Assembly (NCBI GenBank): GCA_020633435.1
Contig: JACKDP010000002.1
Span: forward strand, 695,788-759,787
DNA length: 64,000 nt
Reading direction: 5' to 3'
DNA from: Myxococcales bacterium
GTDB lineage: Bacteria > Myxococcota_A > Bradymonadia > UBA7976 > UBA1532
The notes below the pieces were generated by a model. It made no database searches and had not been told where the DNA came from. It was given only the letters and a program-made list of their open reading frames with translations. The first letter of the stretch is position 1; the number at the start of each line of letters is the position of its first letter. This document shows, in pieces, positions 1 to 30,583 of the stretch. The position numbers and the translations under genes are program-made.

Positions 1-186
1 GCGTCGCCCCGGCGGCCCGCCTCGACCACCGCCTCCGTCCGGCCCCCGACCTCCACCGCCAAGATGGCGGCAGCCACCACGCGGCCCACCACCTGAGGCG
101 GCCCCACCGGCTCGTCGAGGGTGTCCTCCTCCCCGCGCCTCGACACCGCTGCACCGGGCCCCGGCGGCTGCTAGACTCGCCCCGGC

Positions 187-2355
187 ATGCGCCCCGCGAT
201 CCTCACCGCCCTGGCCGCCCTCTGGGCCTGCACCGACGCGGCCCTGCAGCCGGTGCCCCCCGTCGAGGCGCCGCTGCCCGACGCCTTCCTGCGCGTCCGC
301 GGCCAGGTCTGCACCGAGCCCGCCGACGTCACGCCCTTCCCGGTGAAGATCCTCTTCGTCCTCGATCAGTCCACCTCCCTGCAGTGTACGGACAGCCGCA
401 ACCGCCGGGTACGCGCGCTGCGCGACGTGGTCGACGGCCTCTCGCCGCTGCCCAACGTCTGGTTCGGCTTCATCGGCTTCGCCAACTGGACGCGCGTCCA
501 GCCGTTCACCCAGGACCGCGGCGCAGCCACGCCGTTCCTGGACCCGGCCCAGGGCCTCGGGCCGGCGACCGACTACCAGGGCGCCCTGGCCTCGGCCGCC
601 CGCCTGCTGGAGCAGGACATGCTCGACGCGGGCGCCGCCGTCCGCGCCCGCACCCGCTACGTCGTCGTCTTCGTCAGCGACGGCGTGCCCGAGCCGCGCT
701 GCAACGCCGGATGCGAGGACGACCGCGAGCGCTGCGACGACGGCGGCGACAACGACGGGGACGGCCTGGTCGACGCCGCCGATCCCGACTGCGCGGACCT
801 CGACGACAACAGCCTGCACCCCGACAACCTCTACGGCGTCTGCAACACCGACCGGCCCATCCCCGACGACCTCTACGTCGACATGCCGGGCCGCTGCCCC
901 GCCTACAACCAGCCGCGCCAGATCGCCCAGCGCATCGACGACATCCGTGCCCTGGAGGTGGCCTACCGCGCGGGCGACGTGACGCTGAACACCGTCCTGC
1001 TCGCCTCGCCGCAGGCCGCCGTCGAGGCGGTCTGCCCCGGCGCCCAGGCGGCCTTCGGCTACAACACCGACCAGGCCCGCGAGCTCCTGCGGGGCATGGC
1101 CCGCGCGGGCGGCGGGACCTTCCGCGACATCGACCTGGAGGCCGCCGACGACAGCTTCCTCGACTTCGACTTCACCTCCCTGCGCTCGCCCTACGCCATC
1201 ACCGAGTTCATCGCCCGCAACCACAACAGCCGGCCCGGCCCCGACGGCCCCCGCGTGGACTCCGACGGCGACGGCCTGAGCGACGACGAGGAGCGGGCCC
1301 TGGGCACCGACCCCCTCGGCCTGGACTCCGACGCCGGCGGCGGCGACGGCTACGGTGACGCCTTCGAGGAGCGCGCCCGGCGCGCGGGCTTCGACCCCCG
1401 CGACGCCGCCGCCCCGGCCGTGCCCTGCGGCGACGACAGCGACGAGGACGCCGACGGCCTGCGGGCGTGCGAGGAGGCCTTCCTGGGGACGGATCCCCGC
1501 CTCACCGACTCCGACGGCGACCGCCTGCCCGACGGCCTGGAGCTGGTGGTGGGCACCGACCCCGCCGTGCCCGACGCCGAGGCCGACCCCGATCTGGACG
1601 GCGTGGTGAATCGTGAAGAAATCCGGGCAGGTACCGACCCGCTCGTGGCCGACGCCGAGCGCGCGCGTCGCGCCGCCGTCCGGGCCCGGCTCACCGACCA
1701 GGGCGAGCTGCCGGTGCCCGAGCGCGAGTCCGGCGCCGTGGAGCTGCGCCACTGCTACGACTTCTCGGTCGAGGGCCTCGAGCTGGTCGTGACGGAGCTG
1801 CCCCGGGAGCGCGGCCGCAACCGCATCGACCTCATCGCGCTGGGCGAGCCCGTGGGCATCGAGGGCACCCGCGCGGTGGCCCGTCGGGCCTGCGTCGAAG
1901 CACGCCTGCCCGGCCCCGGCCGCAAGGACCCGCCCGACGGTGACGTCGACCTGCGCCCGGCGGCCTGGGCAGCCCTGCGCGCGGACCTGGAGGCCCGCGT
2001 CGCCCGCGTCGCCGCCTGCGCCGCCCCCGAGGATCCCACCCTCTTCGACCGCCCGGCCCTGGACGACGTGCTCACCCGCTGCCTGCCCCGCACCGTCCAG
2101 CTGGACCGCATCCTCTACGACCGCGCGGAGCTGCAGGCCCTGCTCGTCGCCTACCTGCACCGCGACCTCCGCCCCCGCCTGCCGGTCGAGGCGTCCGACC
2201 TCTTCTGGCCGGCCGAGCTCTTCGATCCCGACGCCCACTGCCTGCGGCCCTGGGAGCTGCGCCGCGTCGTCGCGCTGCTGGCCGCCCTGGAGGCGGCGTG
2301 CGCGACCTGTGGCGCGGCGGGCCCGGACGCCGGCGTCGACGGGGGCCCGCCGTGA
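187..2355 (+). CDS. vWA-domain lipoprotein with thrombospondin-type-3-like Ca-binding repeats
   Basis: Lipoprotein-type signal peptide (LAALWAC). vWA/MIDAS start motif KILFVLDQSTSL. Multiple DxDxDGxxDxxE repeats (DSDGDGLSDDEE etc.). Long clean ORF. Confidence 0.75.
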   Translation: MRPAILTALAALWACTDAALQPVPPVEAPLPDAFLRVRGQVCTEPADVTPFPVKILFVLDQSTSLQCTDSRNRRVRALRDVVDGLSPLPNVWFGFIGFANWTRVQPFTQDRGAATPFLDPAQGLGPATDYQGALASAARLLEQDMLDAGAAVRARTRYVVVFVSDGVPEPRCNAGCEDDRERCDDGGDNDGDGLVDAADPDCADLDDNSLHPDNLYGVCNTDRPIPDDLYVDMPGRCPAYNQPRQIAQRIDDIRALEVAYRAGDVTLNTVLLASPQAAVEAVCPGAQAAFGYNTDQARELLRGMARAGGGTFRDIDLEAADDSFLDFDFTSLRSPYAITEFIARNHNSRPGPDGPRVDSDGDGLSDDEERALGTDPLGLDSDAGGGDGYGDAFEERARRAGFDPRDAAAPAVPCGDDSDEDADGLRACEEAFLGTDPRLTDSDGDRLPDGLELVVGTDPAVPDAEADPDLDGVVNREEIRAGTDPLVADAERARRAAVRARLTDQGELPVPERESGAVELRHCYDFSVEGLELVVTELPRERGRNRIDLIALGEPVGIEGTRAVARRACVEARLPGPGRKDPPDGDVDLRPAAWAALRADLEARVARVAACAAPEDPTLFDRPALDDVLTRCLPRTVQLDRILYDRAELQALLVAYLHRDLRPRLPVEASDLFWPAELFDPDAHCLRPWELRRVVALLAALEAACATCGAAGPDAGVDGGPP

Positions 2356-4157
2356 TGGTCCGCGTCCTCGCCCTGGCCCTGCTGGCCGCCGCCTGCAGCC
2401 GCGCCGACCTGGAGGCCATCCCGGCGCCGCCGCCCCCACCCCGCGACGACCGGCTGGCCGTGTCGGGCGAGCTGTGCACCCTGCCCCCCGACCGCCGCGA
2501 CTTCCCGCTGCGCGTGCTCTTCGTCGTCGACGCCTCGGAGTCCATGGAGGTGACGGATCCCCCCGATCCGGCCACGGGCCTCACCGGGCGCGAGGCGGCC
2601 GTCGCCGCGACCTGGGGCCGGCTGCTCGACCAGAGCCCCGATCAGGTGAAGGTCGGCATCATCCGGTTCTCGGCCCAGGCGGCCTCCCGCACGCCCGTGG
2701 ACGCCGACGCCGACGGCCTGCCCGAGTCGTACTTCTCGGCCAACCGCGACCAGCTCGCCACCGCGACGGCGGCCCTGCGCTTCACCGACCGGACCACCAA
2801 CTACCGCAACGCCCTCGACGAGGCCTACCTCGAGCTGCGCACCGAGCTGCTGCGGGCCGAGGACGAGAGCAGCCCGCGCACCCGCTACGCCGTCATCTTC
2901 GTCTCCGACGGCCTGCCCGACGAGACCGGGGGCGAAGCGGGCCGCAACACGGCCGACGACATCGTGGCGGGCGTGCAGGCCCTGGCCGACCTGGCGGCGC
3001 TCTTCGACGTCGGGGATTTCTCCTTTCACACCGTATACTTGTCGAATCCGGAGGGCGTCTTGCTCGACCAGCCCGCCCAGGCGCTCCTGACGCGCATGGC
3101 CGAGGCGGGCGGGGGCACCTACCGCAGCGTGCCCCAGGGCGAGACGCTCGACTTCCTGCACATCGACCTGACCAGCCTCCAGCGGCTCTACCGCCTGCGC
3201 TCCCTGGTGGCCCTGAACCTCAACCAGGCGACGTCCGCCGGGCAGATCCCCGCGACGCCCGTCCCCGCGCTCGATGACGGCGCGTTCAAGGACCTGGACC
3301 TGGACGGCGAGCCGTCGTGCGGCGACCTGCTCATCGACAGCGACGGCGACGGGCTGGCCGACCTGGTGGAGCAGCGCATCGGCACGGACCCCCTGGCCAC
3401 CGACACCGACGGCGACGGCGTGGGCGACCGGCTGGAGTGGCGGGCGCGCACCTCGGGCCTCGACCCCCTCGACCCCACCGACACGGGCTGCTTCGTCCCC
3501 GACCGCGCCGAGCCGGGGGCCTGCGAGGACGCCGACGCCGACGGCTTCTGCGACTGCCCCGACGTGGACGCCGATGGCCGCTGCGACTACCCCGACACCG
3601 ACGGGGACGGCCTGACGGACTGCGAGGAGATCTTCCTGGGGTCGAGCCAGGTGCTCGCCGACAGCGACGCCGACGGGGTGCCCGATCTGGTGGAGCTGCG
3701 CCTCGGCACGAGCCCCGTCGATGACGACGGCCCCCGGGATCTGGACTGGGATGGCACCCCCAACGGCGTCGAGCTGCGGACGGGGGGCGATCCGCTCTGC
3801 GACGACGCCGCGAGCCGCTCCGAGAGCGCCCTGGACGTGACGCTCGAGGAGGCGGGCACCGCCGGCGCCTCCCTGTGCTATCGCTTCCGGGTCGCCCGCC
3901 TCACCCTGCTGCCCACCCGGGCCAACGCCGGCGCCGACGCCCCGGGCAACGGCCTCAACCGGGTGCTGCTCTTCGCCGGCGAGGCGGCCTTCGACGATCC
4001 CGGCGCCTTCGCCGCCTGGCGCGTCGCCTGCGTGGAGGCCCGCTACCTGCTCGACGGCGACCGCAAGGACCCGCCCTCCGGCCGCATGGCCCTGGTGGAC
4101 GAGGACTTCGTGCCGCTGGCCCGCTTCGATCCGCGCCTGCACTGCCGGCGCCCATGA
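2355..4157 (+). CDS. vWA-domain lipoprotein with TSP3-like repeats, paralogue of the upstream gene
   Basis: ATG overlaps the upstream stop (TGATG). Lipobox LLAAAC. vWA MIDAS motif LRVLFVVDASESM. TSP3-like repeats DSDGDGLAD and DTDGDGVGD. Confidence 0.75.
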   Translation: MVRVLALALLAAACSRADLEAIPAPPPPPRDDRLAVSGELCTLPPDRRDFPLRVLFVVDASESMEVTDPPDPATGLTGREAAVAATWGRLLDQSPDQVKVGIIRFSAQAASRTPVDADADGLPESYFSANRDQLATATAALRFTDRTTNYRNALDEAYLELRTELLRAEDESSPRTRYAVIFVSDGLPDETGGEAGRNTADDIVAGVQALADLAALFDVGDFSFHTVYLSNPEGVLLDQPAQALLTRMAEAGGGTYRSVPQGETLDFLHIDLTSLQRLYRLRSLVALNLNQATSAGQIPATPVPALDDGAFKDLDLDGEPSCGDLLIDSDGDGLADLVEQRIGTDPLATDTDGDGVGDRLEWRARTSGLDPLDPTDTGCFVPDRAEPGACEDADADGFCDCPDVDADGRCDYPDTDGDGLTDCEEIFLGSSQVLADSDADGVPDLVELRLGTSPVDDDGPRDLDWDGTPNGVELRTGGDPLCDDAASRSESALDVTLEEAGTAGASLCYRFRVARLTLLPTRANAGADAPGNGLNRVLLFAGEAAFDDPGAFAAWRVACVEARYLLDGDRKDPPSGRMALVDEDFVPLARFDPRLHCRRP

Positions 4158-6385
4158 GGACGCCGATGCCCGCCCGCCGCGCCCCCTGGCTGCTCATCCT
4201 GGCCCTCGCTGGCTGCGACCAGGGCCCCGACGCCACCGGCCTCACCGACGCCGCGGCCAGCGCGGGGCCCGTCTGCGCGTTCGACGAGTCCACCGATCCC
4301 GCCAGCGCGCTCCCGCTCTCGCCGGGCGCCCCGACCACGGGTCACCTCTGCCCCGTGGGCGACGCGGACTGGTACCGCCTCACCGTGCCGGCCGGCCACG
4401 CCCTCGTCCACGTCGCGCTGGCCATGGAGGCCGTCGTCTCCCCCGTGGAGGCCACCTGGTCCCTGCGGGCCGACGACGGCGCCGGCGCGGCCGTGGCCGG
4501 CCCGGCCCCGAGCGCCGTAGGCGGCCCCCTCGCCAGCACCCACTGCGTGGCCCCCGGGGCCTACGCCCTCGTCGTCCGCGACCAGGGGGACGACGCCCAG
4601 GACCGCCGCACCGCCTACCGCCTGCAGATCGACACGGCCCCCGATCCCGACGCCGCCGAGCCCGACGGCAGCCCGGCGCAGGCCCAGCCCCTCGGCGCGA
4701 GCGCGACGGGCCACATCGCCTGTCGCGGCGACGAGGACTGGTACGCCGTCGAGGTGGGCCCGCAGGCGCTCGTGCGCTTCGCCCTGACCGCCCCGGCGGG
4801 CCCCTGGCAGCCCCGCCTCCGGGTCGCGGATGCCGACGGCAACACCCTGATCTCGTTGACGAATCCAGCCGGCATCCGGGAGGCCACCGACCTGCGACGC
4901 GCCGTCGCAGCGCCGCCGGGGCGCGTCTACCTCGTCGTGAGCGACGACGACGGCGCGGACGCCGATCCCGGCGCCATCTACACCCTCACGGCAGAGGCCA
5001 CGGCCGAGCTCGACGCCTTCGAGCCCAACGAGACCGCGGCCGAGGCGACCCCGCTGGACGCGCTGACCTGCGGCCCGGACTGGACGCCCTGGCAGGTGCG
5101 CGAAGGCACGTTCGGCCGCGTCGGCGACACCGACTGGTTCCGCCTGCCCCTCGAGGGCTGTGGCCAGGGCCTCATCGAGGCAGAGCTCTCGCTGCCCACC
5201 GACGACCTGAGCCCGGCCGCCGCCTGGGCCCTGCAGGCCGGCCTCCAGCCCTCGCTCGCCGTCGTCCGGGGCCATGAGGACAGCCCCTGCGACGCCGACG
5301 AGGCGTGCCGCGCGCTGCACCTGAGCTGCCAGGACGCCTGGGGCTGCGCCGGCTACGGCAACGTCTGCCTGGCCGACAGCCGGTGCGCGGGCGCCACCGC
5401 CTGCCTGCCCGAGGGCCACTGCGGGGCCTTCCGGGTGGAGCGCCACCCGACCGCGCGCCCCGTCCCCGAGCCCGTCGTGGAGGCCCCGCCCCCCCTGGGC
5501 GCGCGCGTGTCCGCGCCGCTGGAGCGCCGCGCCGCCCTGTACCTGCGGATCAGCGACTTCGGTGGTGACGCGGAGGCCCCCGACCGCCCCTACCGCCTGC
5601 GCGTCCGCGTCCGCCGCGACCCCGACCGCAACGAGCCCTCCAACGTCTACACCCCGAACCCGCAGCGATCGGACCCGGCGAGCGTGCAGGCGCGCTTCGC
5701 GGCCCGCAACCCGCTGGTGCCCGTGCACGACTGCACGCAGGCCGCCTCGCCGGACGCGGGCGTGGCGGACGCCGGCCCGCGCGACGCCAGCCCCCGCGAC
5801 GCCAGCCCCCGCGACGCCGGCCCGCGCGACGCCAGCCCGCGCGACGCCCTGGCGGCGGACGCCCAGGCCGTCGACGCGGCCCCGGCCGACGCCGCCCCCC
5901 AGCCCAAGGAGGGCGAGCGCCTCGTCCCCGGCTGCTGCGGCCCGGGGGACTGGATCGAGGGCGCCCTCTCCTACGAGTACGACCAGGACTGGTACGCCTA
6001 CGCCCACCCCTGCCCCGGCGAGGACTGCATGATCCGCATCCGCTACGAGGTGGACGGGGGCCCGGCCGACCAGCTCTGGCAGATCTTCCGCCGCGATCAG
6101 CTCTGGTTCGATCCGGTGGTGCCGGTGGAGGAGCTGCCCATGAGCCCGGCCCGGGCCGGCGCCTTCGGCGGCCTCGACGCCGCGGACGCCTGCTTCTACG
6201 CCTACCGCGGCCACAGCGGCACGGCCGAGGAGCCCTACCTCTACAGCCTCGCCATCCGCGATCTGTTGCCGACGGTGGACTGGTCGCCGGACCAGCGCTA
6301 CCGCTTCTGCATCGAGAAGGTGGTGGCGGGCTGCGAGGCGCCCTGCCAGCCCTACGACGACGGCTGCGGCCTGCCCCGCCGCTGA
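4154..6385 (+). CDS. secreted lipoprotein with repeated PPC-like (pre-peptidase C-terminal-like) beta-sandwich modules and a C-terminal Cys-rich module
   Basis: ATGA overlap with the upstream gene. Lipobox LALAGC. Four repeats of the pattern GH(L/I)C..GD.DWY.(L/V) (for example GHIACRGDEDWYAVEV). Confidence 0.7.
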   Translation: MRTPMPARRAPWLLILALAGCDQGPDATGLTDAAASAGPVCAFDESTDPASALPLSPGAPTTGHLCPVGDADWYRLTVPAGHALVHVALAMEAVVSPVEATWSLRADDGAGAAVAGPAPSAVGGPLASTHCVAPGAYALVVRDQGDDAQDRRTAYRLQIDTAPDPDAAEPDGSPAQAQPLGASATGHIACRGDEDWYAVEVGPQALVRFALTAPAGPWQPRLRVADADGNTLISLTNPAGIREATDLRRAVAAPPGRVYLVVSDDDGADADPGAIYTLTAEATAELDAFEPNETAAEATPLDALTCGPDWTPWQVREGTFGRVGDTDWFRLPLEGCGQGLIEAELSLPTDDLSPAAAWALQAGLQPSLAVVRGHEDSPCDADEACRALHLSCQDAWGCAGYGNVCLADSRCAGATACLPEGHCGAFRVERHPTARPVPEPVVEAPPPLGARVSAPLERRAALYLRISDFGGDAEAPDRPYRLRVRVRRDPDRNEPSNVYTPNPQRSDPASVQARFAARNPLVPVHDCTQAASPDAGVADAGPRDASPRDASPRDAGPRDASPRDALAADAQAVDAAPADAAPQPKEGERLVPGCCGPGDWIEGALSYEYDQDWYAYAHPCPGEDCMIRIRYEVDGGPADQLWQIFRRDQLWFDPVVPVEELPMSPARAGAFGGLDAADACFYAYRGHSGTAEEPYLYSLAIRDLLPTVDWSPDQRYRFCIEKVVAGCEAPCQPYDDGCGLPRR

Positions 6386-20152: not shown

Positions 20153-21337
20153 ATGGCGACGCTCAAGGATCACTGGACCCTCGACCCCAAGACCCGGTTT
20201 CTCAACCACGGCTCCTTCGGCGCCTGCCCCCGGGTCGTGCTCGACGCCCAGCGGCGCTGGCAGGATCAGATGGAGCGGCAGCCCGTCCGCTTCTTCATGA
20301 CGGAGCTGCCGCCGCTGCTGGACGCCGCGCGGGCCCGGGTGGCGGCCCTCGTCGACGCGCCCGCCGAGGATCTGGCGTTCGTGACCAACGCCACCACCGG
20401 CGTGAACACCGTCCTGCGCGCGCTGCGGCTGGGCCCCGGCGACGCCCTGCTGGCCACCGACCACACCTACCAGGCCTGCCGGCGCAGCCTGGAGTTCATC
20501 GCCGCCCAGACGGGCGCGGCGCTGCAGATCGTGGCGATCCCGTTCCCGGGCACGACGGCCGACGGCATCGTCGAGGCCGTGCTCGGCGCGGTGACGCCCC
20601 AGACCCGGGTGGCGCTGCTCGATCACGTCACCAGCCAGACCGGCCTGGTCTTCCCGATCGAGCGGCTGGTGAAGGCCCTCGACGATCGCGGCGTCGACGC
20701 GCTGGTCGATGGGGCCCACGCCCCCGGCATGGTCCCGGTTTCATTGAGGAAAATGCAGCCCGCCTGGTACACCGCCAACCTGCACAAGTGGTGCTGCGCC
20801 CCCAAGGGCGCGGCGCTGCTCTACGTGCGCCCGGACCGGCGCCGCGACCTGCACCCCCTCAACATCAGCCATGGCTACGTGCCCGGCGGCGATCTGCGGG
20901 CCGAGTTCGACTGGACGGGCACCTGGGATCCGACCGCCTGGCTGACGGTGCCCGCCGCCCTCGACTTCCTCGACGGCGTGGGCGGGCTGCCGGCCATCCA
21001 GGCGCGCAACCGGGCGCTGGCCCTGACCGGGCGTGACCACCTGCTGCGCGTCCTGGGCATCCCGGCCCCCGCCGCCGACGACCTCATCGGCTCCATGGCG
21101 GCCGTGCCCCTGCCCCCCGCCGCCGGGGCCCCCCTGACCGGCCTCGGCACCCCGGACGCCTGGCAGCGCGCGCTGCTGGCCGATCACGGCATCGAGGTGC
21201 CCATCATCGCGTGGCCCGCCCCGCCGCGCCGCGTGCTGCGCATCTCCGCCCAGCTCTACAACCATGAAGGCGAGTACCTGGTCCTGGCTTCGGCCCTGGG
21301 CGAGCTGCTGGCCCAGGCCCCGAGAGAGGCTCGATGA
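20153..21337 (+). CDS. PLP-dependent aminotransferase class V (isopenicillin-N-epimerase/cysteine-desulfurase-like)
   Basis: Class V fold features: NHGSFGACP, TNATTGVNTV, DGAHAPGM, and NLHKWCCAPKGAALLYV (PLP-lysine region). Confidence 0.85.
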   Translation: MATLKDHWTLDPKTRFLNHGSFGACPRVVLDAQRRWQDQMERQPVRFFMTELPPLLDAARARVAALVDAPAEDLAFVTNATTGVNTVLRALRLGPGDALLATDHTYQACRRSLEFIAAQTGAALQIVAIPFPGTTADGIVEAVLGAVTPQTRVALLDHVTSQTGLVFPIERLVKALDDRGVDALVDGAHAPGMVPVSLRKMQPAWYTANLHKWCCAPKGAALLYVRPDRRRDLHPLNISHGYVPGGDLRAEFDWTGTWDPTAWLTVPAALDFLDGVGGLPAIQARNRALALTGRDHLLRVLGIPAPAADDLIGSMAAVPLPPAAGAPLTGLGTPDAWQRALLADHGIEVPIIAWPAPPRRVLRISAQLYNHEGEYLVLASALGELLAQAPREAR

Positions 21338-23152
21338 TCCGCCTACGCCCCGCCCTGCTCCTCGCCGCGGGCGCCTTCGCCGCCTGCGAGGCCCCGCTGC
21401 CCCCGTCCCGCCCGGCCGCCACGGGCGTCTGGCGGGCCGGCCTGACCATCGAGGAGACGGCCATGGAGACGTGCGACACGCCGCCCGAGCTGGTGGACGG
21501 CCTGTCGCGGCAGCTCGTGGACGCCATCAACTGCCTGCGGCCGGGCACCCTGGCCGACATCCCGCTCGGGGCCGACATCGGGCTGCTGCGCGCCGGCCGC
21601 CCCGCCATCATCGACGCCCGCGCGGTGGACGACCTGGCCCGCGCCGCCGCGGCGGGCGACCGCCAGATGATCGTCCGCTGGGCCTACCGGGATGTGGCCC
21701 TGCAGCACCTGTTCTGGCTGCAGGACGACTTCCGCTCCTGCGCGGTGGCGGCGCCCGCCGGGCTGTCGAACCACCAGAACGGCCTGGCCGTCGATCTCAA
21801 CGACTACCAGGCCTGGGAGCCGACCATGGAGCGGTTCGGCTTCGAGAACCGATTGCCCAATGATCGCGTGCACTTCGACTACCAGCGCGCCGACGACGTG
21901 GGCCTGGGGGCGCTGTCGCTGCTGGCCTTCCAGGCCCTCTGGAACAAGAACAACCCCGGCGAGGTGGTGCCCCTGAGCGCCGAGCTGGACGGCGACACCT
22001 ACGACGCCCTGAGCCGCGCCCCCATCGAGGGCTTCGCCCGGGAGCTCTGCGACGGCGGCCCCCCGCCGGTCGGCCCGGGCCCCGTGCGCGGACCCACGGT
22101 GGCCCAGTCGGCCTGGCGGGGCTGCGACGCGCCGGCCCCGCTGCTGGAGGGCCTGTCCATCCAGGTCATCGAGGCCATGAACTGCCTGCAGCCCGACGCC
22201 CTCCAGCGCGTGGCCGTCTGCGACCAGCCCGGCTGCATCATCGCCGATGAGCCGCTGCTGCCCTGGCTGGGCACGCCGGCCCGCATGGCGCTCCTGTCGG
22301 CCAGCGCCGTGGGCGACCGCCCCATCCCGCTGGTGGCGGCGTTCCGGGACGTCACGCTGCAGCACTTCTACGCCTCGGCGGACGCCAACATCGGGTGCCC
22401 GACGGCCGACGGCGCCGCCCGCAGCCCGCTCAACACCGGCCTGGCCGTGCGCATCCGCAACGCGCCGGGGCTCGGGGCCATCCTGGCCGACTTCGACTTC
22501 AGCAACGACGGGACGGGGGCGCCCACCGTGTACCGCTACACGGGGGACGACGCGGACGACCTCACGAGCCTGGGCGTGCTGGCGTTCCAGCGGCTCTGGA
22601 ACGTGAACCGACCCGACGATCCCATCGACGAGGATGGCCGCATCGGGCCGCAGACCCGGGGCGCCATCGATCGAGCGCCCATCGCGGGCTTCGCCGAGGG
22701 CCTCTGCGCGGTCGAGCCCCCCGATGGCGGCGTCGGCGGCTCCGGTGGCAGCGGCGGCGTGGCGGGCGCGGGTGGCGCGGGCGGCCAGGGCGGCGCGGGC
22801 GGCCAGGGCGGCGCGGGCGGCCAGGGTGGCGCCGGCGGCCAGGGCGGCCAGGGCGGCGCGGGTGGCCTCGGCGGCGCCGGGGGTCGGCGGCGAGGGCGGC
22901 TTTGGCGGCGGTGGCGTGGGCGGATCGGGCGGCCAGGGCGGCGTGATCAGCGGCGGCTCGGGCGGCGCCGGCGGCGGCGGTGGCGCGGACGGTGGCCTGC
23001 CTTCCCCCGTGCCCCCCGCCCGCGGCTGGACGGCCGTCGCGGTGGAGGACGGCGGCAGCGGCTGCCAGGGCGCCCCCGGTGGCGCCGGTGGGTGGTGGCT
23101 GCTGGGCTTGCTGGCGGCGCCCGCCGTCCGGCGGCGGCGGCGCCGGACCTGA
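21334..23152 (+). CDS. secreted tandem LAS/peptidase-M15-like (VanY/DD-carboxypeptidase fold) protein with two PG_binding_1 modules, Gly-rich linker and MYXO-CTERM. It carries an apparent +1 frameshift near 22875
   Basis: Two copies of a domain (QLVDAINCLRPG...RDVALQHLFW...LSNHQNGLAVDL and a second degenerate copy ...SPLNTGLAVRI). Two PG-binding-like segments (FQALWNKN...DGDTYDALSRAPI and FQRLWNVN...DGRIGPQTRGAIDRAPI). The C-terminal segment GCQGAPGGAGGWWLLGLLAAPAVRRRRRR is in the +1 frame (ORF 22634-23152). Confidence 0.65.
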
Positions 23153-23154
23153 CG

Positions 23155-24245
23155 TCAGGGGGCCAGGACCTCCAGGGTGTCGACGGCGCCGAACGCCTGC
23201 CGCGACGCCCCGCCTGGCACGTAGATGCGGCCGTCCAGGGTCGCCGCCGCCATGCCGTGGCGGGGGTGCGGCATGGCCGGCAGGCGGACCCAGCGATCCG
23301 TCGCCCCGTGCCAGGCCTCCACGGCGTCGAAGACCCCGCTGGCCGCGCCGCGGTTGCCCTCCCCGCCGATGACGTACAGCCAGCCATCCAGCACGGCCGC
23401 GGCCGTCCCGCCTCGCGACGTCGGCATGGGCGCCCCGGACGCCCAGGTGCCCCGCGCGGGATCGAAGACGTCCACCCGGTCGACGTGGCTCTCGATGTCA
23501 GCGGACCGGCCGCCGGCGATGACCAGGCGCCCGTCGACGGCCCCCGCGGCCATGTGGTCGCGGGGCGTGGGCAGGTCGGGCAAGGCCTCCCAGGTGTCGG
23601 CCGCGGGATCGTAGCGGTCGACGAGCGCCACCGCCCGGCCCCCGCCCAGGCCGCCAGCGAGGTAGATGAGCCCGTCGATGACGGCCACCCCGGACGCCCC
23701 CCGCGTCCGGGCCGGGGGCAGCGGGGCGCGCTCCTCCCAGGTCCCGACGGCTGGATCCAGGCGGAAGGCGCGCCCCTCGGCGGCGAACCCCTGGACGAGG
23801 TAGCCCAGCACGTAGAGGCGCCCATCCACCACGGCGGCGTTGGCGTGGTGCAGCCGCACGGGCAGCGGCGGCCCCGCACGCCAGGCGCCGATCGACGGCT
23901 CGAAGATGCGGACATCATTGACGATTCTGGCCTGACCGTCGAAGCCGCCGAGGACCCAGATGGCGTCGCCGGTGGCCACCACGGCGATCTCCTGGATGGC
24001 GCCTCCCCGACGGCCGGGCCGGGCGCCCACCGCTGGGCAGGCGGCGCGTCCGCCAGGCCCGCGTCCGCCAGGCCCGCGTCGGCCGGGCCCGCGTCAGCCG
24101 GGCCCGCGCCGCCCGCGTCGGCGAGCCCCGCGTCGGCCGCGGCGTCGACGGTGGCGTCCACCGGCGGGCAGGCGTCGACGCTGGCGCCCGGGCCGCCGTC
24201 GTCGCAGCCCGCGAGGGCGAGGGCGAGGGCGAGGGCGCGCCTCAT
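23155..24245 (-). CDS. Kelch-repeat beta-propeller lipoprotein (frame break between signal peptide and propeller)
   Basis: Six Kelch-like blades (GG..GG....V..YDP....W). Lipoprotein signal [14 protein letters not shown] at 24245, followed by a DAG-repeat linker in a different frame from the propeller (GTG 24030). Confidence 0.6.
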
Positions 24246-27200
24246 CGGCGGCATACGAACAGGGAGCAGTTGCCCGACTGGCACTCGATGTTCGTCAGGC
24301 AGGCGTGCCCGTTGGCCCACTTCGGCTGGCACGAGTAGCCCGCGTCGCACCAGGCGTTGGCGCCGCAGTCGGCGTGCACGGCGCAGGCCCGGCAGAAGCC
24401 GGCGACGCAGTGCCCCGAGCCGCACTCGATGTTGCCCAGGCAGACGTGGCCGTTGCCCCACTTCGACTGGCAGAAGCCCGCCGCGTCGCACCACTCGTTG
24501 CCGCCGCAGTCGCCATGGGCCCCGCACTCCCGGCAGAAGCCGGCGACGCAGTGCCCGAGCCGCCACTCGATGTTCGTGAGGCAGGCGTGCCCGTTGGCCC
24601 ACTTCGGCTGGCACGAGAAGCCCGCGTCGCACCAGGCGTTGGCGCCGCAGTCGGCGTGCACGGCGCAGGCCCGGCAGAAGCCGGCGACGCAGTGCCCCGA
24701 GCCGCACTCGATGTTGCCCAGGCAGACGTGGCCGTTGCCCCACTTCGACTGGCAGAAGCCCGCCGCGTCGCACCACTCGTTGCCGCCGCAGTCGCCATGG
24801 GCCCCGCACTCCCGGCAGAAGCCGGCGACGCAGTGCCCCGAGCCGCACTCCACGTCGCTCAGGCAGACGTGCCCGTTGCCCCACTCGGGCTGGCAGAAGC
24901 CCGCCGCGTCGCACCACTCGTTGTTGCCGCAGTCGCCATGGGCCCCGCACTCGCGGCAGAAGCCCAGCACGCAGTGCCCCGAGCCGCACTCCACGTCGCC
25001 CAGGCACGCGTGCCCGTTGCCCCACTCGTTCTGGCAGAAGCCCGCCGCGTCGCACCAGCGGTCGGCCCCGCAGTCCGCGTGGCGGCCGCACTCGCGGCAG
25101 AAGCCCAGCACGCAGTGCCCCGAGCCGCACTCCACGTCGCCCAGGCACGCGTGCCCGTTGTCCCACTCGTCCTGGCAGAAGCCCGCCGCGTCACACCACC
25201 GGCCGTCCCCGCAGTCGGCGTGGGCGTCGCACTCCCGGCAGAAGCCGATGACGCAGGCCCCCGAGCCGCACTCCCGATCGCTCAGGCAGGCGTGGCCGTT
25301 GTCCCAGAGCGGCTGGCAGTAGCCCGCCGCGTCGCACCACTGGCCGCAGGGGCACTCGTCGTCGCGATCGCAGTGGGCGCACAGGCCCAGCCGGCAGGAG
25401 CCCGACTTGCACTCCACGTCGCTCAGGCAGGCGTGGCCCGCGTTCCACTTGCTCACGCAGACGCGCGTCAGGTCGCACCAGGCCCCCGACCCGCAGTCAG
25501 CATGCCCGTCGCAGTCGCTGCACACGCCGGCGCGGCACGTCCCGCTCTGGCACTCGACGTCCGACAGGCACAGGTGCCCGGCCGACCACTTGCCGACGCA
25601 GACGTTGGTGGCGTCGCACCAGGCGTCCGCCGCGCAGTCGCCGTGGCGCTGGCAGTCCGTGCAGATGCCCAGGGTGCACTGGCCGCTCTGGCACTCCACG
25701 TTGCCGAGGCAGACGTGGCCGCCCTCCCACTTGCCCACGCAGACGCCCGTCACGTCGCACCAGGCGCCGGCGCCGCAGTCGGCGTGCTGCTGGCAGTCGC
25801 TGCAGACGCCCACCCGGCACGTGCCGCTGGCGCACTCGTCATCCCCTACGCACAGGTGCCCGGCCTGGAAGCGCGGCTGGCAGACGCCGTCGATGCAGCG
25901 CTCCTCGGCCGGGCAGTCCCCGCCGTTGTCGCAGCGACCGGGCACGCCGAGCCCCAGGCTCTCGCGGTCCCGCGCCTCGCAGGAGCCGTCGGTCAGCGCC
26001 GGCGGCACCCCCTCCAGGCCACGCTCGCCCCGGGCGCGCTCCCACGTCCGCACGTAGGCCTCCGCCGACCGGAGCATGGGCTCGATGTCGTCGTCGCCGA
26101 GGCCGATGTTGCGCAGATCCTGAATGAAATCAGGCAACAAGCCGATGTGGGCCACGCCGTCGGTGTTGATGTCGAAGGTGCGGTTGCCGGTGACCTGCTG
26201 GGGCAGCGCCTCGAAGCCGGGGAGCTGCACCGGGTAGCGCACACGGGTCGCCTCGGCCTGGGCCACCCGCTCGGCGGGGAAGCCGGCGCCCAGGCGGCAG
26301 GCGTCCGGGCCGAAGCGGGGGGAGGTGTGCCGGGCCAGGCCGTTGAAGTCGGTGCCGATGCCCAGGCCCACGCCACCGAGCTGGTGGGCAGCGAAGAGGA
26401 GCTCCTGGGCGAAGGTCTTCGAGCTGTTGGTGCAGTCCGCCGGCACCGCCCCGACGCTGTGGATGCAGGTCTCGGCGTCGGGATCGGCGTCGCAGCCGTG
26501 GTTGCTGCCGCCGATGAGGGCCAGCATGCCGCCCGTATCGGCCACGGCGCGCAGGTCGGCGCACGTCATCATCCGCTCGGCGCGCTCGTGGCCGGCGTAC
26601 ACCGGCAGGGTGCGGGCGTGGGAGTACATCACCGGGAAGCCCAGGTCCCGGGCCATGGCGATGGTCTCGTCCCGGGACCGCCGGCCCATGTGATCGATGT
26701 CGATGATCATGCCGCGACCCGCGAGGCCCTCGATGAGGTGGCGGCCCAGCGGGGTCAGGCCCCGCGTGTTGCACTGGCCCTCCTGCCCGTCGAAGACGGC
26801 CGTGGCCAGGCCCATGGTCTCGGCGATGACCGCCACGGCGGGGTTGCGGCCGAAGGCGAACCGGAAGCCGTCTGCCGTGCAGTCGCGGCTCTGAAAGGCG
26901 CGGTCGTTGTAGACCTGGTTCGCGAGCACGTAGACGTCGTCGAAGAGGGCGGTGCCGCCGAACGCGTTGTCGACCCCGTGGATGGGGATCACATGCCGCA
27001 CGCCGAGGGCGTGCAGCTCGTCGAGCTTGCGATCCACATAGGCCGGCGTGCAGGCCTCGTTGCCCTGGTCGCACCCGAAGAGCGCCCCCACCTCGACGCC
27101 GAGGACCACGGCCAGGCGCCCCTGGCCGATCACCGCCCGGGCCTCGGCCGGCGTCTCGACGATGCGGTACCAGCCCGTGTCGTTCTCCAGCCCGTCGTCT

Positions 27201-28497
27201 TGCCGATCCACCCAGGCCTGGAAGCTGAACGCTTCGCTGACCTGCCGGTGGATGGAGGCGTCCTCGTCGCAGTCGTACCGTCCGCCCGGCGCCACGCCGC
27301 ACAGCAGCCGGTTCTCGACCGCCAGGACGGAGATGAGGCGCAGGCCGCCGCGCCACGCCCGCTCGAGCCAGTCGACATAGGCCTGCTGGTGGGTGCGGGA
27401 GTACCAGTGCGGCCAGCCGCGGAAGTCGGGCCAGCCGCCGGGATCGTGGCCGAGGGGCTCGCCGACGGCCGCCACGATGGGGTTCGTCCCGCACACGCCG
27501 TGGCCCTCCAGGCCGTTCTGGGTGCAGGTCGCACCGCTGCACAGCCCCGAGCGGGCGCCGCAGCAGTGCAGGGCCTGGGCGGGATCCTCGCAGCCGAGGG
27601 GCGAGGCGGCGTCGTAGGCCTCCCCCTGGATGAAGCCCCCGCCGAACGCCAGGCTCGACATCTGGTGCAGGTGGGCGTCCGCGAAGCCCCAGAGGGCCGC
27701 GCCCGACCCGGGTCGGCAGGCCAGCGTGCAGAAGTCGCAGGCGGTCTCGCCAAAGGCGGGCTCGCACGACCCCGCGTTGGCGTCGCCGTCGTCGCAGAGC
27801 TCCACGCCCGCCTGGACGACGCCGTCGCCGCAGCGGGCCGGCTGGCAGGTGTTGCGGCAGGCGTCCGTGTCGACGCGGTTGCCGTCGTCGCAGCCCTCCA
27901 CGCCGGCCTGCACGACGCCGTCGCCGCAGCGGGCCGGCTGGCAGGTGTTGCGGCAGGCGTCCGTGTCGACGCGGTTGCCATCGTCGCAGCCCTCGACCCC
28001 CGCCTGCACCACGCCGTCGCCGCAGCGGGCCGGCTGGCAGATGTTGCGGCAGGCGTCGGTGTCGACGCGGTTGCCGTCGTCGCAGCCCTCGCCCGGATCG
28101 ACGACGCCGTCGCCGCAGGTGGCCGGCACCATGGCGTCGGGAGGCAGCACGCTGGCGTCCCCGGCCGGCGGGCCCGCGTCCGATCCCGGGACCTCGCCGC
28201 CCCCCGCGCCCGCCATGCCGGCGTCTGCGCCCGGGACCTCGCCGCCGCCCGCGCCCACCTCCCCGCCGGCGCCGCCGTCACCGCCGACGCCGCCCGCATC
28301 GCGGCCAGGCGCCCCAGCCGTCCCGCCAGCGCCACCGCCCGCGCCGCCCCGCCCGCGCCGCCGCCATCGCCGGGCCGCGCGTCTGGCGTCACCACCGCGC
28401 CATCGCACGGGCTCGCCCCGCACGTCTCCCCATCCGACGCCGTCCCCGCATCACACCCGAGGACGAGCACCAGCACCCAGCACCGCCAGCCAGCCAT
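24242..28497 (-). CDS. giant modular exoprotein: lipoprotein signal, Gly-rich linker, 3 Myxococcus Cys-rich repeats, an M19 membrane-dipeptidase-like domain, and 13 tandem 45-aa Cys-rich repeats
   Basis: [29 protein letters not shown] repeated 3 times (Myxo disulfide repeat). [30 protein letters not shown] resembles peptidase M19. C-terminal repeats of the form CxxDxECxSGxCxxGxCxxCxxHxDCGxxxWCDxxGxC. Signal peptide [15 protein letters not shown] at 28497 is in a different frame from the main ORF (GTG 28423). Confidence 0.75.
24260..24800. repeat. near-identical tandem duplication (2 x about 270 bp) inside the Cys-rich repeat array, which extends with 135-bp periodicity to about 25990
   Basis: Long stretches beginning ggcaggcgtgcccgttggcccacttcggctggcacgag...gccatgggccccgcactcccggcagaagccggcgacgcagtgcc recur almost perfectly. 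The + strand ORF 24357-25322 shows the same periodic peptide. Confidence 0.7.
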
Positions 28498-28588
28498 CCA
28501 GGACCTCCCCCGCATGCCCGCAGCGTAGCACCGCCCCGTGGCCACGAGATCCCTTGCGCAGCGCCCGCCGACCTGAAAGAACGCGCCC

Positions 28589-30583
28589 ATGGAGATCCGC
28601 GACCTCGCCGAGCGCGTGCTCTTCGGTCGGACGCTGGCCGAAAAGCTCATTCATCCCGAAGAGTTGACGGATGAACGCCCGGGCGTGGCGCTGGCCCGCG
28701 CCCCCGCCGAGCCCGAGCGCCCGGCCGGCCTGGCGCTCGTCCGCCGGGCCCGCGTGCCGTTCCCCGCGCTCGCCCACCTCGACCAGGTGGACGCCCGCGG
28801 CCACGCGCTGCACCACTTCGCCAGCCACGAGCTGCTGGCCATGGAGCTCATGGCCCTGGCCCTCCTGCGCTTCCCGGACGCGCCGCCGGCCTTTCGCCGT
28901 GGGCTCGTCGCCGCGCTGCACGAGGAGCAGGCCCACTTCGCCCTCTACCAGGCCCGGATGGGCGCGTGCGGCGTGCCCCTGGGCGCGGTGCCGGCCAGCG
29001 CCCTCTTCTGGGACGCCCTCGCCGGCATGGCCTCGCCCCTCGACTTCGTGGCGGGGATGAGCCTGACGTTCGAGCAGGCCAACCTCGACTACGCCGGCTT
29101 CTACCGGCGGGCCTTCGCCGCCGTCGGCGACGCCGAGACGGCCGCCGTCCTCGACCAGGTCTACGAGGACGAGATCGGCCATGTGAAGCTGGGCCTCGTC
29201 TGGTTTCGGCGCTGGCTGTCCCCCGGGCCCGACGCGGAGTGGGCGGCGTACACCGAGGCCCTCCCGACGACGCTGCAGCCCAGCCGGGCCAAGGGCCTCG
29301 AGTTCGACGCCGAGGCCCGCCGCCGCGCGGGCTTCACCGAGGGCTACATCGACACGCTGCGGGTCTTCAGCCGCTCCCGCGGGCGGGTGCCCGATCTGCA
29401 CGTCTTCGATCCCGCCGCCGAGATCGTCCTCGCGGGGCGCCCCGTGCCCGCCGTGGCGGAGACGCTGCGGGCCGACCTCGAGACGCTGCCCATGTTCCTG
29501 GCCGCCGCGGACGACGCCGTCCTCGTCGGGCGGCCGCCGCGGCCCGCCTTCCTGGCCCCGCTGGCCGAGGCGGGCTTCACGCTGCCCGAGTTCGTCACCC
29601 CCGAGGCGGCCGCTGACCGCACCTTCCGCCAGCGCCGGCCGTGGGCCGACCTGGCGGCGACGCCGGCCCACCTCTTCCGCAAGTCCTGGGCGGCCGGGCT
29701 GCTCGCCGGGCTGGCCGAGGCCGGCGACTTCGCCGACGCCGCCGTCGTCGGGGCCGCGTGCCGCACCCTCGCCGAGGTGGAGGCCCACGCGACCCGCCTG
29801 CGGGCCCTGGGCTTCGCGCCGCTCGTCGCCAAGGCCGACCTCGCCACCGCCGGGCGTGGCCACATCCCCCTCGGCGACGCCCTCCCCGTCGCCCGCCTGC
29901 GCCGGGTGCTCGCCATCGGCCCCGTCGTCGTCGAGCCGTGGCTCGACCGCGTCCTCGACCTGGGCCTGCAGCTCCACGTCAGCGACACGGGCTGGCGGCT
30001 CGACGCCATCACGCGCGGCCTCGTCGACGCCCGCGGCCAGCACCGCGGCGTCGCCCTCACCCGCCTCGCCGCCGGCCTGCCAGAGCACCTGCGGCGGTGG
30101 CTCATGGGCGCGGCCACCCAGGCCGCCCTGCGCCGGGCCGCGGACCACGTGGGGGCCGCCCTCCACGGGGCCGGCCACCGCGGCTTCGCGGGCGTCGACG
30201 CCCTCGTCTACCGGCGCGACGGCGCCTTCCACCTCAAGCCCATCGTCGAGGTGAACCCCCGCACCACGATGGGTCGGGTGGCCCTGGGCCTGCGCCGCCG
30301 GGTGGCCCCGGGCGCCGCCGCCGCCTGGATCCAGGTCCCGACGCCCGTGGACGCGACGCCGCACCTGCAGGTGCGCGGCCAGCCGCCGCTCATCGAGGAC
30401 GCCGTCCTCTTCACCACCGACCCCGAAGGCGCGCGCTTCACGACGCTGCTGGTGGTCGCCCCGACGGTCGAGGCGCTCGCGGCGCGGCTGGCCGCCTGGA
30501 CCACCGCGGTGGATCCCCTGGTTTCTGCTCATGAAAGTGTCGCGCCGGGCGCGGCGACCCTTGGCGGGCCGTCGCAGCCGTGA
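28589..30583 (+). CDS. fusion protein: N-terminal ferritin-like (DUF455-like) domain plus C-terminal ATP-grasp-like domain
   Basis: HHFASHELLAMELMALALLRFPDAP...HEEQAHFALYQ and EDEIGHVKLGLVWF match the DUF455/ferritin-like helical-bundle pattern. C-terminal half carries ATP-grasp-like features: GFAGVDALVYRRDGAFHLKPIVEVNPR. Confidence 0.55.
   Translation: MEIRDLAERVLFGRTLAEKLIHPEELTDERPGVALARAPAEPERPAGLALVRRARVPFPALAHLDQVDARGHALHHFASHELLAMELMALALLRFPDAPPAFRRGLVAALHEEQAHFALYQARMGACGVPLGAVPASALFWDALAGMASPLDFVAGMSLTFEQANLDYAGFYRRAFAAVGDAETAAVLDQVYEDEIGHVKLGLVWFRRWLSPGPDAEWAAYTEALPTTLQPSRAKGLEFDAEARRRAGFTEGYIDTLRVFSRSRGRVPDLHVFDPAAEIVLAGRPVPAVAETLRADLETLPMFLAAADDAVLVGRPPRPAFLAPLAEAGFTLPEFVTPEAAADRTFRQRRPWADLAATPAHLFRKSWAAGLLAGLAEAGDFADAAVVGAACRTLAEVEAHATRLRALGFAPLVAKADLATAGRGHIPLGDALPVARLRRVLAIGPVVVEPWLDRVLDLGLQLHVSDTGWRLDAITRGLVDARGQHRGVALTRLAAGLPEHLRRWLMGAATQAALRRAADHVGAALHGAGHRGFAGVDALVYRRDGAFHLKPIVEVNPRTTMGRVALGLRRRVAPGAAAAWIQVPTPVDATPHLQVRGQPPLIEDAVLFTTDPEGARFTTLLVVAPTVEALAARLAAWTTAVDPLVSAHESVAPGAATLGGPSQP

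Follow-up and report, generated by a model that had tools for sequence, protein, structure and literature searches.

A predicted surface lipoprotein of a Myxococcota bacterium with an M19-like hydrolase domain between two cysteine-rich repeat arrays

The locus and its reading frame

In this work we have analysed a stretch of 64,000 nucleotides (the 64-kb window) from contig JACKDP010000002.1 of a Myxococcales bacterium (assembly GCA_020633435.1), and specifically one gene on its minus strand which appears to encode a large lipoprotein with a domain resembling the M19 membrane dipeptidases. All coordinates are positions in the window, which has a G+C content of about 74%, and residue numbers are those of the open reading frame (ORF) that begins with GTG. 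The coding region, 24242–28450 on the minus strand, holds 1402 stop-free codons and has a G+C content of 0.96 at third codon positions (GC3, from an analysis of GC by codon position). The continuous ORF within it, 24242–28423 (minus strand), starts with GTG and encodes 1393 amino acids (aa) without a signal peptide. The features recognised at the locus are as follows.

28453–28515, minus strand: lipoprotein signal peptide, ATG at 28515 with an alternative internal ATG at 28497; found by three-frame translation, out of frame with the main ORF
28331–28415, minus strand: apparent frameshift zone with a 1-nt deficit, inside the G-rich linker; GGGG run at 28350
28118–28452, minus strand: Gly/Ala-rich low-complexity linker, from translations and short-period Tandem Repeats Finder (TRF) rows at 28185–28372
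27713–28117, minus strand: four Cys-rich acidic repeats of the form CGDGxxxxGExCDDGN (TIGR02232/DUF4215), with a 96-nt period
26009–27697, minus strand: M19-like (beta/alpha)8 domain, predicted to be a metal hydrolase, aa 243–805; from PF01244, AlphaFold2 (AF2), Foldseek, hhalign and residue invariance
24245–25939, minus strand: C-terminal Cys-rich array of a half unit, 11 full 47-aa units with 8 Cys each, and a terminal half unit (ending CSLFVCRR)
24311–24874, minus strand: a 282-nt block of two units that occurs twice in tandem, as units 8–9 at 24593–24874 and units 10–11 at 24311–24592
24551–24568, minus strand: compensated +1/−1 indel in unit 10, GAGTGGCGGCTCGGGCAC versus GAGTGCGGCTCGGGGCAC, from comparison of the duplicate DNA
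24242–24245, minus strand: ATGA stop/start overlap with the Kelch gene, ATG 24245–24243 over TGA 24244–24242
23155–24245, minus strand: downstream gene for a Kelch beta-propeller lipoprotein (Kelch_1, 8.4e-46), frame broken near 24007

The original prediction had taken 24242–28497 as a single ORF. This interval is 4256 nt long, which is not divisible by three, and the main frame is closed upstream by a stop at 28451–28453, which makes a start at 28497 impossible in that frame; the signal peptide is read in another frame, and the break had been overlooked. The addition of one base at any tested position within 28331–28415 gave a single ORF of 1424 aa from the ATG at 28515. The proposed order of domains, namely signal, Gly-rich linker, Cys repeats, M19 domain and Cys array, is correct only after this 1-nt break is mended. 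In the window the lipobox reads VLGC and lies one nucleotide out of frame. Equivalent canonical lipoboxes were found in all three orthologs, that is in the window gene and in two further genes obtained from a scan of species-representative genomes, one in the metagenome-assembled genome (MAG) ABC2.71 (L001) and the other in Myxococcales HK-STAS-MYXO-6 (L002). The enzyme domains of L001 and L002 are 89% and 65% identical to that of the window protein, respectively.

At the 3' end of the gene, the proposed stop–start coupling to a downstream Kelch lipoprotein gene held, since the ATGA can be read in the sequence and the downstream product has both the Kelch_1 match and a lipobox signal. Another possible ATG lies at 24254. 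No promoter or terminator was found in a scan of 22700–28700. As an upstream gene we considered the minus-strand ORF 28451–30532 and rejected it, because codon-position GC points instead to 28589–30583 on the plus strand.

The M19-like domain and its predicted active site

The presence of an M19 dipeptidase-like domain was borne out by the Peptidase_M19 profile (PF01244), which scored 63.5 bits against a cut-off of 26 while covering only profile positions 154–308 of 319, and by the quoted motif ending in PVMYSHA, which is present in the translation. An AF2 model of the approximately 560-aa domain, built with 62 aligned sequences, reached a pLDDT (predicted local distance difference test) of 88.4 and a predicted template-modelling score (pTM) of 0.93. 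When this model was compared with the PDB by Foldseek, ranks 1–20 were all M19 structures (E 1.3e-13 to 1.2e-7, target-normalised TM-score 0.55–0.69), among them renal dipeptidase, Sco3058, GliJ, Rsp dipeptidase, Lmo2462, PvdM and DPEP3, and barrels other than M19 appeared in the ranking at E > 0.01. The family profile was also aligned by hhalign with plasmid-borne canonical M19 dipeptidases, using as reference only the two members with a His-x-Asp motif, and matched them with 99% probability (E 8e-18, template residues 109–346). A single-sequence phmmer search of the PDB returned marginal M19 matches only (E about 3e-3), the best of them being PvdM (3b40), so that methods based on profiles and structure had to be used. 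Six plasmid M19 genes taken together were rejected as the hhalign reference; the N-terminus was misaligned with this mixed set and three of the six lack the His-x-Asp motif. In three canonical-length plasmid genes annotated 'dipeptidase / peptidase M19' (L082, L083 and L085), IDGLQ or IDALQ replaces IDGHND, so that the first metal site is variable among annotated M19 proteins too.

Most of the residues expected at an M19 active site have a counterpart in the window protein. By hhalign, E444 (in LGVEVG) aligns with the Glu of canonical LGAEGG, which corresponds to Glu125 of renal dipeptidase, H482 (IPIHG) with the His of TLTHN (His152), R617 (AERM) with the Arg of HPRN (Arg230) and D692 (GTDFNG) with the Asp of GSDFDG (Asp288). 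H578 (IDIDH) aligns with the His of VDLSH (His198) and H602 (MYSHA) with that of IFSHS (His219), and both also align with PvdM and GliJ. We take Asp288 and His152 of renal dipeptidase to be catalytic and Arg230 to bind the substrate carboxylate. Seven positions, H251, H253, E444, H482, H578, H602 and D692, are invariant in 62 of 62 family members; the position of R617 is Arg in 23 of the 62. Human renal dipeptidase binds its metals through His20, Asp22, Glu125, His198 and His219 (PMC9305348). By comparison, the predicted metal ligands of the window protein are H251, H253, E444, H578 and H602, and H482, R617 and D692 would be catalytic or substrate-binding residues. The metal ligands had been named as the point on which an active domain depends, and here the ligand set is conserved and the loss that would mark an inactive domain was not found.

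The first strand of the barrel is the exception. Its motif in the family is G-F-A-D-x-H-x-H, the second ligand position is His in 62 of 62 members, and the His20-x-Asp22 pair of M19 is absent. According to the barrel topology of the AF2 model (model strand 5–10), by which H251 and H253 were placed, these two residues may replace His20 and Asp22 on strand 1. Global hhalign paired IDGHNDL with the family segment LAVENRLL at zero confidence, and we rejected this pairing because a family segment resembles the M19 strand-2 motif LRGGGVGAQFWSVYAP. A profile of the GFADxHxH motif found no match in the PDB, even at E 10.

The assignment to M19 made in the original prediction therefore stands for the fold and the later motifs and has to be qualified in two respects, the first motif being His-x-His instead of His-x-Asp and the domain being about 200 aa longer. 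Since one defining M19 feature is absent, we have filed the domain as an M19-like sister subfamily. The domain shares the (beta/alpha)8 barrel with the M19 membrane dipeptidases (DPEP1, 1itq; Streptomyces Sco3058, 3id7; the fungal Cys-Gly dipeptidase GliJ, 5lwz), and the bridging Glu, the two later His ligands, the catalytic Asp, the His152 equivalent and the carboxylate-binding Arg all align between them. DPEP1 is lipid-anchored outside the cell, and the same is predicted for the window protein. In contrast, identity to these enzymes is about 15%, the window protein is multidomain with Cys-rich arrays, and it has an invariant Glu before the Arg position. Relative to canonical M19, the family has three additions: a Cys-rich stretch of about 95 residues after strand 1, in which the confidence of the model is lower, an insertion between strands 4 and 5, and about 55 residues directly after the catalytic Asp, with invariant PRFG, YPF and FDxNxDG motifs. 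All three lie at the catalytic face of the barrel in the AF2 model, and conserved Cys columns occur within the domain. The pocket loops after strand 1 and after the catalytic Asp, being specific to the family, point to a substrate unlike those of classical M19 enzymes. Taken as a whole, the domain most likely works like an M19 enzyme.

Repeat arrays, family and gene neighbourhood

Both Cys-rich regions that had been described are real, with corrections to the count. TRF found 96 nt x 3.6 copies with 90% matches in the N-terminal CGDG region, and when the 140-aa CGDG segment was scanned alone it matched TIGR02232 (1.5e-21, 75.9 bits against a cut-off of 20.8) and DUF4215 (1.2e-18, 67.5 bits), each in four stretches. 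The Myxococcus Cys-repeats are thus confirmed, and they number four instead of three. A scan of the whole 24242–28423 product against NCBIfam returned no family; given the match of the segment alone, we regard this null as a filter artefact. Scans of long, biased, repeat-rich proteins can mask real repeat families. The repeat itself is the same as in the 'myxo_disulf_rpt' (TIGR02232) proteins of Myxococcota, with a good match to the model and no difference, and what distinguishes the window protein is its use as an N-terminal spacer for an enzyme domain.

The C-terminal array was recovered by TRF (period 141, score 1296) and by a repeat search, which found 10 in-register copies at 141-nt spacing. 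Its 11 full units span aa 855–1371, and with the two half units they replace the 13 units of 45 aa proposed earlier. Near-identical duplicates do occur in the last four units, with a length of 282 nt and not 270. Compared in register, units 8–9 agree with units 10–11 at 268 of 282 nt, and beyond the first 40 nt they differ at a single position. Identity reaches 99% between units 9 and 11, and the repeat search gave 95% over 300 nt at a 282-nt offset. Units 1–7 are diverged, at 59–89% nucleotide identity. Unit 10 reads EWRLGHC for ECGSGHC and has lost one Cys. A comparison of copy number, which had been suggested as a check, showed 11 full units in the window, 8 in L001 and 14 in L002, and units 1–6 of the window pair one-to-one with units 1–6 of L001. 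Because the counts differ among orthologs while these units pair, the array is genuine and its copy number shifts on short evolutionary scales; together with the 282-nt duplication, this supports the claim of a recent expansion.

What kind of module is the 47-aa unit? Its cysteine spacing scores above the Pfam thresholds of DUF7107 (71.1 bits against a cut-off of 24.6, seven stretches) and Dickkopf_N (30.3 bits against 25), the latter describing the N-terminal Cys-rich domain of Dickkopf proteins. It differs from these in being a bacterial tandem array of 47-aa units. An AF2 model of three units consists of short hairpins and reached a pLDDT of 83 in one of five runs, and Foldseek found no match to it at E < 0.01, the N-terminal region of Dkk4 appearing at E 2.2 and knottins at E > 2. 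A reading of the repeat as a protease inhibitor of the knottin type is unsupported by this fold search and was rejected. In an exhaustive HMMER search with three units against 1.84 billion representatives, only 153 clusters were found, 26 of them below 1e-30. Among the 150 matches listed, the enzyme domain occurs as well in just the L001-type cluster P0121 and, weakly, in P0247. Seven top matches scanned besides P0121 have no M19 domain, and in four sequences that we read the repeat reaches the C-terminus.

The catalytic domain belongs to a large group, sister to the M19 membrane dipeptidases and so far uncharacterised, and those members that we inspected look secreted. In the species-representative genome collection we counted at least 461 loci, in Myxococcota, Acidobacteriota, Binatia, Planctomycetota, Nitrospirota, Actinomycetes (Cellulomonas, Intrasporangium), Gammaproteobacteria (Microbulbifer, Paraglaciecola, Lysobacterales) and others. 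A search with the domain gave 577 relatives, the top match being 42% identical; among the matches listed most are 500–1000 aa long, and the named ones are called 'membrane dipeptidase' or 'microsomal dipeptidase-like Zn-dependent dipeptidase'. Such long proteins (e.g. P0006, P0011, P0040, P0050 and P0109) share the same 520–570-aa domain, in most of the matches listed at 33–45% identity near full length, and have the same invariant residues as the window protein. Their inspected N-termini are secreted- or lipoprotein-like, and signal-like N-termini were also seen in those distant family members that were inspected. They differ in their accessory modules, which include CGxxGQRAC repeats, Ricin-B, FG-GAP, HYR, Big_2, FIMAH, DUF5648 and DUF7495. 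The statement that a metallodipeptidase on such a scaffold is unusual was therefore too strong: the family is routinely fused to Ricin-B lectin, FG-GAP, HYR, Big_2, FIMAH and other Cys-rich modules, and the variety of these modules among relatives makes display on a scaffold its rule. Among the 80 loci that we fetched, the window, L001 and L002 alone have the 47-aa array after the enzyme, and in these 80 loci and the 150 array matches listed the combination of TIGR02232 repeats, 47-aa array and enzyme is likewise confined to this clade. Judging from the sequences compared, only this pair of Cys-repeat scaffolds is lineage-specific, belonging to a small clade.

Across the 80 loci only one neighbour recurs, a Ser/Thr protein kinase gene, which is found at 9 of them (L002, at 2026–5305, and L004, L015, L020, L022, L043, L057, L074 and L079), and in four of them, from Myxococcota (L002 included), Acidobacteriota, Planctomycetota and Gammaproteobacteria, it is joined by an extracytoplasmic function (ECF) sigma factor (PF07638). 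Perhaps the kinase and the sigma factor form a regulatory module for M19-like proteins. The window and L001 share the gene order aminotransferase, VanY-like protein with a MYXO-CTERM tail, Kelch lipoprotein, M19-like lipoprotein and a divergent DUF455 gene, and the ATGA junction between the M19-like and Kelch genes is also present in L001. L002 lacks the neighbours that these two share. As L001 is a close relative, the conserved order tells little about function. Adjacency to a Kelch gene was rejected as a family trait, since only L001 has it; L031 has a distant upstream Kelch-like match.

Some further observations concern these neighbours. The product of the Kelch gene consists of a lipobox signal followed by a linker and the propeller; in the 5' part of the gene, 24045–24141 holds 4.7–6.7 copies of a 15-nt unit that encodes a (DAGLA)-type linker, and 4.5 copies of GCGAGG at 24211–24237 give the ALALALA core of its signal peptide. 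In the Kelch ortholog of L001 (L001 9030–10180) the signal is in frame and there are two frame changes within the propeller. The VanY-like gene, 21334–23152 (plus strand), encodes an M15B-type protein (Pfam VanY, 1.1e-5) with a Gly-rich linker and a MYXO-CTERM tail (TIGR03901, 28.6 bits), which is reached only after a frame change at about 22880–22885; as assembled, the ORF extends to 24579. Its stop (23150–23152) and that of the convergent Kelch gene are 2 nt apart. In L001 the tail of the VanY-like gene is also scrambled, this MAG being likewise indel-rich. The divergent gene 28589–30583 (plus strand) encodes 664 aa, with DUF455 (2e-47) in the first 254 aa, and is 67% identical in L001; neither Pfam nor NCBIfam gave a match to the remaining approximately 400 residues. 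Only about 75 nt lie between the start codons of the DUF455 and M19-like genes. Elsewhere in the window, the product of 62040–63998 (minus strand) is secreted and combines five calcium-binding EGF repeats with Dictyostelium-type Cys repeats and with a MYXO-CTERM-like tail (CTCD...ILLLAALVLLRRRRR); it is another disulfide-rich surface protein. At 175–6385 (plus strand) there are three consecutive lipoprotein-like genes; the first has a VWA domain and bacterial TSP3 repeats, the second resembles by eye a paralogue of the first and the third has no Pfam match.

The proposed surface enzyme and its alternatives

The explanation which we favour, with a probability of roughly 0.6, is that the locus is a single gene whose product, a lipoprotein of about 1420 aa on the cell surface, carries an M19-like hydrolase between two Cys-rich arrays. 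The protein would be lipidated at Cys21, and a flexible Gly-rich linker with four disulfide-bonded TIGR02232 repeats would hold out the 560-aa (beta/alpha)8 hydrolase domain, after which a rod of about 565 aa would follow, made of disulfide-rich 47-aa modules. Two metal ions would be bound by H251 and H253 on strand 1, the bridging E444, H578 and H602. With D692 and H482, the domain would hydrolyse an amide bond in a small peptide-like substrate with a free carboxylate, which R617 would bind as in M19 enzymes. The Cys-rich arrays may serve as accessory stalk or binding modules, growing and shrinking by unequal recombination.

Several points weigh against this explanation. As assembled, the ORF carries no signal peptide. 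Neither HMMER nor hhalign, whether local or global, aligned the N-terminal motif with M19. R617 is replaced by Gly in 32 of the 62 relatives, and carboxylate binding may not be a trait of the family. The repeat model was confident in one run of five and had no significant structural match, which leaves the stalk or binding role a conjecture. Lastly, a literature search found no published study of the long His-x-His M19-like family and no characterised member of it, and none for DUF7107 or for M19 with Myxococcus; activity and substrate are therefore deduced from the kinship with M19.

Is the break between the signal and the body an error or part of the biology? In L001 the lipobox signal, MGRWMGLAALLLLGC, is in frame with the body of the protein. 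The signal of L002, MRWHLLWLAALVVSC, is again read in a frame other than that of the body; the frame switches within a GGQGGGAGG linker, in the direction opposite to that of the window. Compared with L001, the Kelch gene of the window shows a 1-nt gap some 10 nt ahead of the conserved propeller start, GCCATCCAGGAGATCGCC, near 24007, and the frame of the convergent VanY-like gene changes at about 22880 (22880–22885) in a Gly-rich linker ahead of the MYXO-CTERM tail. The direction is mixed, with a 1-nt deficit in the M19-like and Kelch genes and a 1-nt excess in the VanY-like gene and L002. The aminotransferase and DUF455 neighbours each gave a single tblastn segment against L001, with no frame break seen. 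Between the window and L001 the linker DNA has diverged too far for an alignment to place the frameshift. As the breaks are confined to G-rich tracts, differ in site and direction across three MAGs and interrupt coding statistics that are otherwise perfect, the break in the M19-like gene is most likely an assembly deletion in the G-rich linker, that is a consensus indel error, and the +1/−1 pair in unit 10 is probably another. The locus could instead be a true pseudogene or a decaying one: the deficit would be genuine, translation of the body, if it occurs, would start at the GTG at 28423 without a signal, and the protein would be non-functional. The break is after all present in the assembled sequence, a local pair of indels has cost unit 10 a Cys, and the adjoining Kelch and VanY-like genes are broken too. 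We consider decay unlikely, since the 1402 codons without an in-frame stop have kept a GC3 of 0.96, all catalytic residues are intact, L001 is in frame at the same site, and breaks that occur only in G-rich low-complexity tracts and differ in related MAGs are the signature of consensus indel errors. Another thought is that the breaks are biological and that phase-variable on/off switching by slipped strands, or ribosomal recoding, controls the display of individual surface proteins, because three adjacent genes for exported proteins (VanY-like, Kelch and M19-like) and the L002 ortholog all have a break either where signal and linker meet or within a Gly-rich linker. If so, linkers between export signals and mature domains would give heritable on/off display of individual surface proteins. 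This is hardly to be expected here, given that the direction of the shift is mixed, that GGGG is the only run, with no long homopolymer or slippery heptamer, and that the break in the Kelch gene of L001 lies inside the propeller and not in a linker.

The length of the array might also owe something to the assembly. Over most of their length the duplicate copies reach 99% identity, the +1/−1 indel pair lies at the junction, and the assembly has other indel problems, so that the 282-nt duplicate and the unit 10 junction could come from mis-assembly. This has some chance of being right, although we doubt it; it would affect copy number only and is compatible with the surface enzyme that we propose. 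Independent assemblies contain 8 and 14 units, which shows the array to be genuine and variable, and the diverged units 1–7 assemble unambiguously. A different question is whether the barrel is an enzyme at all. A non-hydrolytic periplasmic subfamily of M19 exists (PMC9305348), its member PvdM is the best single-sequence match in the PDB, and, as is predicted for the window protein, proteins of this type place the M19 fold outside the cytoplasm on a membrane anchor. It may be that the window protein is a non-catalytic binding protein of this kind, whose barrel only binds a peptide or delivers it to a partner, for example the co-transcribed Kelch protein. We find this very improbable, because PvdM-type proteins lack four of the five ligands, the bridging Glu included, and PvdM has no zinc site (PMC9305348), whereas the window protein keeps every ligand position, and these positions and the catalytic Asp are invariant in all 62 relatives of its domain. 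The locus is a real and probably functional gene for a surface enzyme, with a lineage-specific combination of domains within the M19-like family.

What might such an enzyme act on? Work of Cummings et al. from 2010 is said to have found that bacterial M19 enzymes prefer L-Xaa-D-Xaa dipeptides. Together with the VanY-like neighbour, this allows a first, weak guess that cell-wall-derived peptides could be the substrate. For the family as a whole, the usual attachment of binding or adhesion modules and, at about a tenth of the loci, the adjacency of the kinase, sometimes along with the ECF sigma factor, suggest an enzyme that acts outside the cell and under regulation, with peptide-like substrates such as peptides of the cell wall, peptide antibiotics or beta-lactams. 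G-rich linkers of high-GC MAGs would be hot spots for frame errors that hide signal peptides, and the window protein offers a clear example for the study of disulfide-rich bacterial display scaffolds and of tandem-module expansion. The greater value of the finding lies in the catalytic family more than in this single locus, since the discovery of its substrate would annotate hundreds of genes.

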